Assembly (NCBI GenBank): GCA_964510585.1
Contig: CAZECW010000126.1
Coordinates: forward strand, 2,734-34,733
Origin: an uncultured archaeon
Lineage (GTDB): Archaea > Asgardarchaeota > Jordiarchaeia > Jordiarchaeales > Jordiarchaeaceae
DNA length: 32,000 bases
Direction of reading: 5' to 3'
Part shown: one piece after another, positions 1,386-25,972 of the stretch
Layout of the letters: every line of letters begins with the position of its first letter
How positions within the stretch are numbered: position 1 is the stretch's first letter
The notes under the pieces: model-generated
The model's input: only the letters and a program-made list of their open reading frames with translations
Databases searched by the model: none
Told to the model about the DNA's origin: nothing
Position numbers and translations under genes: made by a program

Positions 1386-1831
1386 CTTAATTCTCTTCTC
1401 CTTTTAGTCGATGAAAGATTCCAAACCAATCTCGAATAAGTTCAACATTACCCAATCAATATATACGAAATCAAATTTAGGACATGGATGCAAAATTTGA
1501 GCCATAAAAAAAGATCATAACCTATTATTATCCTTTTTTTGGGGAAGAGTTTATGGGATTTTTATCCCGCAAAAGTGCTACTAAAAAAGAAAAGAGCCTT
1601 AAGCATCTCCCGCTCATTCATTCCTAGTTTGATTAAAAACTAAAAGTATAGCTACCTAAACCTGAAGAATATGGTGACGCCTAAAATAAGCATAATTGGC
1701 TTATCCCCTTTTTATGACAGCACTTTCTACACAAAGGTTATCCCCAAAAATATGATCTAATAAATTTCCTCTTGAGAGCAAAACTAAAAAATAGGTGTTT
1801 ACACTTAATGATACTGCAGATTACAAAGATT

Positions 1832-21210: not shown

Positions 21211-21377
21211 TGGTAGCGGGATGTGGATTTGAACCACAGATCTCAGGGTTATGAGCCGACCGCCCTTGCGGTATTCTCCTTAAGGTCTGCGGGATCTCCT
21301 GAGTGGGCTTCCTCTTCTCTCGAAGAGTTCATCTACCTTGGACTTGGACTCTCGATTGAGAATCCATCTATCCCGCT
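21211..21377 (-). tRNA. Initiator tRNA-Met(CAT) with three introns: 10/11 (21338-21367, 30 nt), 15/16 (21303-21332, 30 nt), 29/30 (21258-21286, 29 nt)
   Basis: Spliced product AGCGGGATAGGGTAGTCAGGAGATCCCGCAGGGCTCATAACCCTGAGATCTGTGGTTCAAATCCACATCCCGCTACCA (78 nt). It has the A1:U72 pair and three G-C pairs in the anticodon stem (initiator marks). BHB helices GGAT/GTCC, GGGT/GCCC, CCGC/GCGG. Confidence 0.9.
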
Positions 21378-21421
21378 AACAAGCGCACTCTTCCCGCTAC
21401 GTTTTAGGTCAAGGAATCTTA

Positions 21422-25161: not shown

Positions 25162-25287
25162 GGGCTCATAGCTCAGTGGAAGATTCCCAAAAAAGGAAGC
25201 CAAGAGCGCCTGGTTTGCAGCCAGGAGGCCGCGGGTTCAAAACCACAGAGAAAAACTCAAAAGGTGAAACTCCCGCTGAGTCCACCA
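25162..25287 (+). tRNA. tRNA-Ala(TGC) with two introns: 22/23 (25183-25204, 22 nt) and 59/60 (25242-25270, 29 nt)
   Basis: Acceptor GGGCTCA/TGAGTCC with the G3:U70 Ala identity pair, loop TTTGCAG, encoded CCA. BHB helices TGGA/GCCA (one A.G) and TTCA/TGAA. Confidence 0.92.
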
Positions 25288-25421: not shown

Positions 25422-25497
25422 GGGCGAGTAGTCTAGCGGCTATGACACCGCCTTGACGTGGCGGAGGTCGCAGGTTCAAATCCTGCCTCGCCCACCA
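25422..25497 (+). tRNA. tRNA-Val(GAC), intronless
   Basis: Complete cloverleaf GGGCGAG...CTCGCCC-A-CCA, anticodon at 25455-25457. Confidence 0.97.
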
Positions 25498-25519: not shown

Positions 25520-25527
25520 TTTAATAA
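25520..25527 (+). promoter_or_regulatory. Putative TATA box (TTTAATAA) of tRNA-Phe
   Basis: Preceded by CAAAAGA (BRE-like). A -30..-23 placement predicts a start at G25550. Confidence 0.55.
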
Positions 25528-25578
25528 GTTGTGAAAAAAACTTGTTTTTGCCGTCGTCCAAATTCTCCCAGGATAGGT

Positions 25579-25739
25579 GCCGTCGTAACTATTCACAAAG
25601 AATAGCGACAAGCTTAGCCCGGGAGAGCGTCGGATGCTGCCAGAATCCCTGACAGAAGACGAAACTGAAGATCCGATTGTCGCTGGATGCTGCCAGAATC
25701 ACTGACAGAAGGCGACTTCAAATCCGGCCGACGGCACCA
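25579..25739 (+). tRNA. tRNA-Phe(GAA) with three introns: 9/10 (25588-25611, 24 nt), 30/31 (25634-25663, 30 nt), 53/54 (25687-25716, 30 nt)
   Basis: Spliced product GCCGTCGTAGCTTAGCCCGGGAGAGCGTCGGACTGAAGATCCGATTGTCGCTGGTTCAAATCCGGCCGACGGCACCA. BHB helices GTCG/CGAC, CGTC/GACG, CGCT/GGCG, all with 3-nt bulges. Confidence 0.92.
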
Positions 25740-25864: not shown

Positions 25865-25972
25865 TGGTGCGGCTGCCGGGAGTCTCGGATAAAGGCTGCT
25901 CTCCTTCCTCATTCGAACCCGGGTAACGAGCTTGGAAGGCTCGGGTCCTAAACCAGGCTAGACTACAGCCGC
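25865..25972 (-). tRNA. tRNA-Gly(TCC) with one 30-nt intron at 59/60 (25882-25911)
   Basis: Acceptor GCGGCTG/CAGCCGC, anticodon TCC at 25936-25934, encoded CCA. BHB helix TTCG/CGAG, bulges AA|T and AC|T. Confidence 0.94.

Follow-up and report, generated by a model that had tools for sequence, protein, structure and literature searches.

The stretch of DNA analysed here, referred to as the window, comprises 32,000 nucleotides on contig C126 of a 3.78-Mb, 40% G+C genome recovered from hot-spring metagenomes (the source genome, G000). Its plus strand carries a gene for tRNA-Phe(GAA) at 25579-25735, and upstream of this gene the 5′ acceptor strand of the tRNA is repeated. The sequence TGCCGTCGT occurs exactly twice in the window, at 25549-25557 and 25578-25586, 29 nt apart, and the second occurrence represents positions -1 to 8 of the tRNA gene. 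Shuffling gave an expectation of 0.07 matches, and two or more matches were obtained in 0 of 100 shuffles. The repeat of the acceptor strand described in the initial annotation was thus confirmed, with no further copy elsewhere in the window.

The tRNA genes of the window and their leaders

ARAGORN and Rfam recovered just 3 tRNAs in the window and 9 in the entire source genome, and both missed tRNA-Phe. Our own BHB-guided cloverleaf search, written for intron-rich tRNA genes, returned 28 tRNAs in this genome at the setting used, compared with 0 on reversed-sequence decoys. Relaxed settings yielded 17 extra matches against 15 decoy matches and were dropped, except for two clear genes; looser searches together with a T-arm-anchored scan located about 7 tRNAs beyond the 28. 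The census of the source genome covers about 35 of roughly 45 genes and is blind to introns inside positions 1-7. Several of the tRNAs that were not located appear in the published table of a congener, all of them with the first intron at 15/16 or later (PMC11291895). Seven tRNAs were located in the window (Phe, iMet, Val-CAC, Ile-GAT, Ala-TGC, Val-GAC and Gly-TCC). Two of these were missed by the standard tools and have no leader copy:

25162 to 25283, plus strand: tRNA-Ala(TGC), introns in the D-loop and at 59/60
25869 to 25972, minus strand: tRNA-Gly(TCC), intron at 59/60

Five further genomes, G001-G005, are congeners. The tRNA coordinates of G005, which belongs to the same genus, match the published complete Freyarchaeota genome, and those of G021 match Atabeyarchaeota_1 (Supplementary Data 4, PMC11291895). 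On this basis the source organism belongs to the Freyarchaeia, an intron-rich group of Asgard archaea. In the published Freyarchaeota tRNA table Phe and iMet are both missing (PMC11291895). Both genes are present in G005 (L005, G005:C1, about 1547576-1547793, and L015), where tRNA-Phe carries a fourth intron at 59/60. The tRNA-Val(GAC) gene at 25422-25493 of the window is intron-free in G000 and G005 and has a 32-33-nt intron at 59/60 in G001, G003 and G004, which we read from the sequences as a recent gain or loss within the genus.

The tRNA-Phe gene was solved with zero violations, and its spliced product is a 73-nt cloverleaf with the anticodon GAA. The gene and its leader are organized as follows:

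25520 to 25527, plus strand: TATA-like box TTTAATAA of tRNA-Phe, read from the sequence and kept in 5 of 5 congener orthologs
25549 to 25557, plus strand: leader copy (candidate stand-in strand), T followed by GCCGTCG and T, identical to tRNA positions -1 to 8
25558 to 25578, plus strand: leader spacer, with 25563-25578 complementary to the D-arm (G10 to G24 region) in the minimum-energy fold
25579 to 25587, plus strand: exon 1 (nt 1-9), with G4-G7 (25582-25585) as one strand of the BHB central helix
25588 to 25611, plus strand: intron 1 at 9/10, 24 nt, with a 6-bp hairpin, CGAC at 25606-25609 and terminal AA
25612 to 25633, 25664 to 25686 and 25717 to 25735, plus strand: the remaining exons, with the 3′ acceptor strand at 25729-25735
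25634 to 25663 and 25687 to 25716, plus strand: introns 2 (30/31) and 3 (53/54), from the cloverleaf/BHB search
25736 to 25739, plus strand: encoded discriminator A73 and CCA, read from the sequence

Judging from the usual archaeal spacing, transcription would start near G25550. At the 9/10 intron, G4-U5-C6-G7 pairs with CGAC, with the 3-nt bulge UA|A, the bulge AA|G and the intron hairpin. It had been proposed that this BHB uses G4-G7 and thereby excludes the acceptor stem, and the helix GUCG/CGAC was indeed found in the solved gene. The 10-bp pairing GGTGCCGTCG/CGACGGCACC, proposed together with it, is likewise present in the sequence. Intron 1 has no exon-exon outer helix and is of the HBh′ type, which falls within the archaeal BHB introns.

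Comparison of the spacer segment 25563-25578 with the D-arm at 25612-25627 showed that 13-14 of 16 positions are complementary, G-U pairs included. Within the spacer TCTCCCAG is kept in the congeners, and ATAGG is absent in three of them. Introns 2 and 3 of tRNA-Phe are near-identical 30-nt paralogs; they are almost identical to each other within G001 and within G004, yet differ between species. This likeness suggests concerted evolution or repeated copying within one gene.

The tRNA-iMet gene of the window has a leader copy as well. Its exons were defined against intron-free sister-family orthologs and the gene was then solved by the search; the sister-family genomes, sought as a source of compact reference tRNAs, proved to be intron-rich too. 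Its features are:

21392 to 21399, minus strand: leader copy TAGCGGGA, which precedes the true 5′ end by 21 nt
21215 to 21377, minus strand: tRNA-iMet(CAT) gene with introns at 10/11 (21367-21338), 15/16 (21332-21303) and 29/30 (21286-21258)

On this strand TAGCGGGA is read at 21399-21392 and again at 21378-21371. The first intron uses a helix of G5-G6-A7-U8 with GUCC, and its inner helix is offset by 1 nt, a relaxed form. The initial annotation had counted a copy in both tRNAs with acceptor-invading introns and in none of six others; Phe and iMet do have it, and the other tRNAs, of which the window holds five and not six, do not. [quoted passage not shown] Based on the complementarity of the Phe and iMet spacers, the leaders may scaffold more than the acceptor strand.

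Outside the window, tRNA-Thr(CGT) of the source genome combines an 8/9 intron with the near-copy GCCU-U-CGG, and the GGA before it pairs with U73-C74-C75. The BHB of this intron is fully canonical, and its 5-bp outer helix is formed by leader positions -3 to -1 plus G1-C2 with G10-A14. Central helices of 4 bp, as in archaeal BHB introns, were found for Phe (GUCG/CGAC), iMet (GGAU/GUCC) and Thr-CGT (CUCG/CGAG), and in related genomes for Thr of G009 (CCCG/CGGG) and for His (GGGG/CCCC).

Public runs containing this DNA are hot-spring metagenomes. Three of them are labelled metatranscriptomic and offer contigs only, without joints or informative ends; in 2 of these 3 the assembled contigs, which are unable to show RNA ends or splice junctions, represent the allele of a relative.

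Leader copies and the position of the first intron

For a census of 34 tRNAs of the source genome we calculated the duplex energy of the 35-nt leader with the 11-nt 3′ end, and, for the precursor ensemble, the probability of the true acceptor stem. The four strongest leader-to-3′-end duplexes were:

tRNA-Tyr: -22.5 kcal/mol, no intron in the 5′ region
tRNA-Thr(CGT): -18.4 kcal/mol, first intron at 8/9
tRNA-iMet: -17.7 kcal/mol, first intron at 10/11
tRNA-Phe: -14.9 kcal/mol, first intron at 9/10

The duplexes of the other 30 tRNAs reach -8.9 kcal/mol or are weaker. In the precursors of Tyr, Thr-CGT, iMet and Phe the true acceptor stem is predicted with a probability of 0.00; for 29 of the remaining 30 tRNAs the value is at least 0.89. 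A first intron at position 12 or earlier was found in the source genome for Thr-CGT, iMet and Phe alone.

About 120 loci from Asgard genomes were scanned by the same method. A leader copy accompanies a first intron at 8/9-10/11 in 28 of 28 genes, which represent five gene lineages and four Asgard families (for Leu-TAA the copy was read in two of four genomes). Among the remaining tRNAs copies were detected in three genes from two lineages, namely Tyr in G000 and G001 and Glu-CTC in G025; this comparison set consists of 30 tRNAs in G000, roughly 110 further rows and 36 more, with orthologs counted separately and congeners being non-independent. No leader copy was found in genes with a first intron at 15/16 or later, either in the G000 census or among the approximately 120 Asgard loci. 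The association across genomes that had been anticipated therefore holds for every 8/9-10/11 gene found at the Asgard loci and is not exclusive to them, as Tyr and Glu-CTC show. A 10/11 parse at locus L113 was considered as a counter-example and rejected as a mis-parse. In seven of seven representative cases the duplex energy of the leader was better than that of 990-1000 out of 1000 shuffled leaders.

The two lineages with a copy and no 5′ intron are located as follows:

G000:C4:42965-43159, minus strand: tRNA-Tyr (locus L049), 12-nt copy in a 15-bp insertion
G025:C40, about 1525-1600, minus strand: intron-less tRNA-Glu(CTC) (locus L122), GCTCCGGGTG 21 nt upstream

The Tyr copy duplicates the start of the gene. 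The insertion occurs in G000 and G001 only, is absent from G002-G005, and its copy already carries one substitution. From these sequences we take it to be a young duplication, and it may provide a snapshot of the birth of a leader copy. Its presence in a gene that lacks an intron in the 5′ region shows that duplications of this kind form spontaneously and that the cell tolerates them. In tRNA-Glu, GCTCCGGGTG is a near-copy of the 5′ end and is able to pair with the 3′ strand; it may have remained after an intron was lost, or represent a gene stub.

The copies linked to early introns are well conserved. The Phe copy TGCCGTCG is invariant in G000, G001, G003, G004 and G005, the iMet copy GTAGCGGGAAGAGTG in six congeners and the Thr copy TGGAGCCTTCGGTGA among 5-6 congeners, while overall identity falls to 74-79% in the more distant congeners and the sequence directly upstream of the copies diverges freely. 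The leader of Tyr, the one other leader compared across the same congeners, is not conserved. Where the intron is missing, so is the copy: four sister-family genomes encode an iMet that lacks both a 5′ intron and a copy, and Phe of G021 has neither the 9/10 intron nor a copy.

In other Asgard families the arrangement involves different tRNAs. All five genomes of the sister family f2 have a Thr-GGT gene with an 8/9 intron and a GCCCCGG copy; the spacers of 4-5 nt are all different, and one copy contains a 2-nt bulge. In family f16 (G047 and G062) tRNA-His has a 9/10 intron and the near-copy GGCUGGG(G/A). Its differences from the gene, C3 to U opposite G70 and G7 to A opposite U66, keep or improve the pairing with the 3′ strand. 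Bases beyond the copy lengthen the helix into N73-C75 in Thr, iMet and Thr of G009, and in Thr leaders even to A76. The acceptor sequences are invariant within each lineage and leave no covariation signal among orthologs. Leu-TAA of family f12 has an 8/9 intron in four genomes, and in the two that were read wider a GCGGGGG copy lies 41-43 nt upstream, inside what appears to be a degraded second copy of the gene's first 28 nt. Leu-TAA had appeared as a counter-example, an effect of the 35-nt leader window, which the copy lies beyond in these two genomes.

Predicted folding of the precursors

In the minimum-energy folds of the Phe and iMet precursors the leader copy is paired with the 3′ acceptor strand, which in Phe includes A73, and the true 5′ strand is paired with the intron. 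For the ensemble at 37 °C we determined the probability of the BHB central helix with the native leader, with shuffled leaders and with no leader:

tRNA-Phe: native 1.00, shuffled 0.67, none 0.01
tRNA-iMet: native 0.99, shuffled 0.09, none 0.00
tRNA-Thr(CGT): native 0.91, shuffled 0.09, none 0.00
tRNA-Thr of G006: native 0.89, shuffled 0.05, none 0.00

Upon removal of the leader in silico the acceptor stem closes (0.96-0.99). At 70 °C the BHB helix is less probable with the native leader, at 0.20-0.92. Overall, a leader-dependent BHB helix is predicted in these four of seven cases. In the other three, Thr of G009 and both His genes, the 3′ strand is sequestered, yet no gain of the BHB helix is predicted.

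The same model was applied to precursors from which intron 1 or all introns had been removed. The leader keeps hold of the 3′ strand, and the probability of the true acceptor stem is about 0 at 37 °C and does not exceed 0.11 at 70 °C. In the original proposal, the real strand displaces the decoy once splicing is done. This was not reproduced, and a takeover of the strand as a purely thermodynamic event is rejected by these folds.

A candidate stand-in strand, its alternatives and known systems

The original proposal of a cis-acting decoy on the 3′ acceptor strand agrees with the association with intron position, the conservation of the copies, the substitutions that preserve pairing and the ensemble folding; its last step, release by the real strand, does not follow from the model. 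On this evidence we favour, as the probable explanation, that the leader is transcribed and that the copy in it serves as a functional stand-in for the acceptor strand. The analysis shows the anatomy of the genes, the conservation, the association with intron position and the predicted folding. We infer that the transcript includes the copy and that splicing requires it; above all, this applies to how the leader is released.

According to this explanation, an intron at 8/9, 9/10 or 10/11 would present its BHB cut sites only if tRNA nucleotides 3-8 pair with four intron nucleotides, and such a 4-bp exon-intron helix would prevail over the G+C-rich acceptor stem of 7 bp only with the 3′ strand already taken. 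The leader strand would pair with the 3′ acceptor strand, in many cases together with the discriminator and C74/C75, and so leave the true 5′ strand free for the BHB. EndA would then cut and a ligase would join the exons, after which the true strand would take over and RNase P would remove the leader. Tertiary folding, base modification or the binding of RNase P could tip the balance toward release. Since the Tyr duplication is tolerated, cells can evidently mature leader-bound precursors. RNase P is available in the lineage: its RNA was found in G005 (clear), G006, G021 and G031, and Rpp29 is encoded in G000. A search for the RNase P RNA gave no match in the G000 assembly, which may reflect a gap in the assembly or in the search, the gene being possibly unassembled or interrupted.

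The helix between the leader and the 3′ end could instead serve a different purpose, such as protection of the CCA, or a block to RNase P, aminoacylation or export until the body of the tRNA is finished, with a BHB that does not need it. Its frequent extension to N73, C74, C75 and even, in Thr leaders, A76 would suit this role, as would its persistence after splicing in the folding model and the lack of a BHB gain in three of seven folded cases. We consider it unlikely all the same, as it leaves the restriction to 8/9-10/11 introns unexplained when every multi-intron tRNA would profit, and as the predicted BHB depends on the leader in four cases. Improbable to a further degree is a neutral scar, that is, a tandem duplication of the 5′ end of the gene that is harmless because RNase P trims the leader and that has no role in splicing. 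Copies do arise and persist without such a role, since both Tyr, with its insertion in G000 and G001 that G002-G005 lack, and Glu-CTC of G025, with its near-copy, have them in the absence of a 5′ intron; the f12 Leu-TAA leader, too, looks as if about 28 nt of the gene had been copied there and had since decayed. However, a 7-9-mer of this kind should decay, yet it is invariant in 5-6 congeners and in five f2 genomes whose spacers differ; it is present in 28 of 28 genes with an 8/9-10/11 intron versus three genes among the rest, and the observed substitutions preserve the pairing with the 3′ strand. A lineage-specific, decaying copy unrelated to gene structure describes Tyr in G000 and G001 and does not describe Phe, iMet, Thr, His and Leu.

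Two further readings we regard as very improbable. The upstream copy might be the real 5′ exon, with the spacer and the downstream copy being removed within a longer intron. In Thr-GGT of G009 both copies include U8 and would give the same mature tRNA, and the search returned both parses. In the other genes the consequence would be altered tRNAs lacking U8 or the purine at position 9: after the upstream copy of Phe comes a C, and in three congeners position 8 of the copy is itself C; the iMet copy continues with AGA, the Thr-CGT copy has an inserted U and that of His deviates at positions 3 and 7. We also rejected that EndA excises a single repeat period, as this needs a self-complementary 4-mer and none is contained in the repeat. 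Comparably remote is the idea that a mobile or integrative element inserted into the front of the tRNA gene and left a dead 5′ stub behind. The spacers, of 5-34 nt and in Thr-GGT of 4-5 nt, hold no element, hairpin cassette or gene, and the arrangement persists throughout a genus and an order; in place of remnants between the copies and a patchy presence, we found the copy in 5-6 congeners and in all five f2 genomes. A target-site duplication by intron insertion was rejected, since both copies lie upstream of the intron.

Returning to the stand-in strand, its likely origin is a small tandem duplication of the 5′ end of the gene. In a wider form, which could well apply though we advance it tentatively, the acceptor-invading pre-tRNAs of Asgard archaea would be programmed two-state RNAs, in which a leader surrogate is required to open the stem and enforces splicing before 5′ maturation. 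Tandem duplications such as that of tRNA-Tyr would come first and make a forbidden region permissive for the gain of introns. How introns persist at sites whose BHB is in competition with the mature fold is an open question that recent work on Asgard tRNA introns has raised again. If true, the stand-in strand would answer it for the acceptor region in a simple way that can be tested; it would also give tRNA 5′ leaders a new role and define the order of the processing steps. It would also hint at how new intron positions become accessible, with duplication coming first. The leader copy could in addition be used to flag hidden tRNA genes, such as those for Phe and iMet, which the congener's published table lacks.

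Non-canonical and multiple tRNA introns have been described in Thermoproteales and Asgard archaea (Marck and Grosjean, 2003; Sugahara, 2008; PMC11291895; bioRxiv 10.64898/2026.10.13.758758). The introns studied here are similar to these, with short BHB or relaxed HBh′ motifs at 8/9-10/11, 30/31, 53/54 and 59/60 and an exon-intron pairing that cannot coexist with the mature cloverleaf. In the two Asgard papers among these the word leader does not occur (PMC11291895; bioRxiv 10.64898/2026.10.13.758758), and the reviews searched refer to leaders only for split or permuted genes. A full-text search of incomplete coverage, by which priority cannot be proven, returned no published description of a cis copy of the acceptor strand. 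Within the limits that this coverage sets to any claim of priority, the stand-in strand is probably a novel form of leader-assisted archaeal tRNA splicing.

Pairing of leader and trailer that builds the BHB is known for split and permuted tRNAs (PMC4090602, PMC4033280, PMC3218864). In the trans-spliced split tRNAs of Nanoarchaeum equitans and Caldivirga maquilingensis it is a complementary leader and trailer that do so (PMC4090602, PMC4033280). As in those genes, a flank outside the tRNA would aid folding so that the endonuclease sees a BHB, and would later be discarded. Unlike split tRNAs, whose pieces come from separate transcripts with promoters of their own, each gene here is contiguous and gives one transcript, with all exons behind a single TATA-like box. 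The leader, a copy of the 5′ strand, takes the 3′ acceptor strand as its pairing partner, which makes it a competitor and not a part of the cut site. No BHB is built from leader and trailer; Thr-CGT alone has an outer helix lengthened by three leader bases.

Permuted tRNA genes have been reported for iMet and Tyr of Thermofilum pendens and in Cyanidioschyzon merolae (PMC3218864, PMC3978253). [quoted passage not shown] There, however, the upstream piece is the real 3′ half and is kept in the mature tRNA, whereas here it is a redundant copy of the 5′ strand that would be discarded; the upstream element has the same sense as the 5′ strand, and the 3′ half is in its normal place. The logic of two exclusive helices, in which an upstream strand sets the partner of a downstream strand, is that of attenuator/antiterminator pairs and of the expression platforms of riboswitches. 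In contrast to these, neither a ligand nor a ribosome takes part in the proposed switch, and its outcome would be a splicing motif presented in a tRNA precursor.
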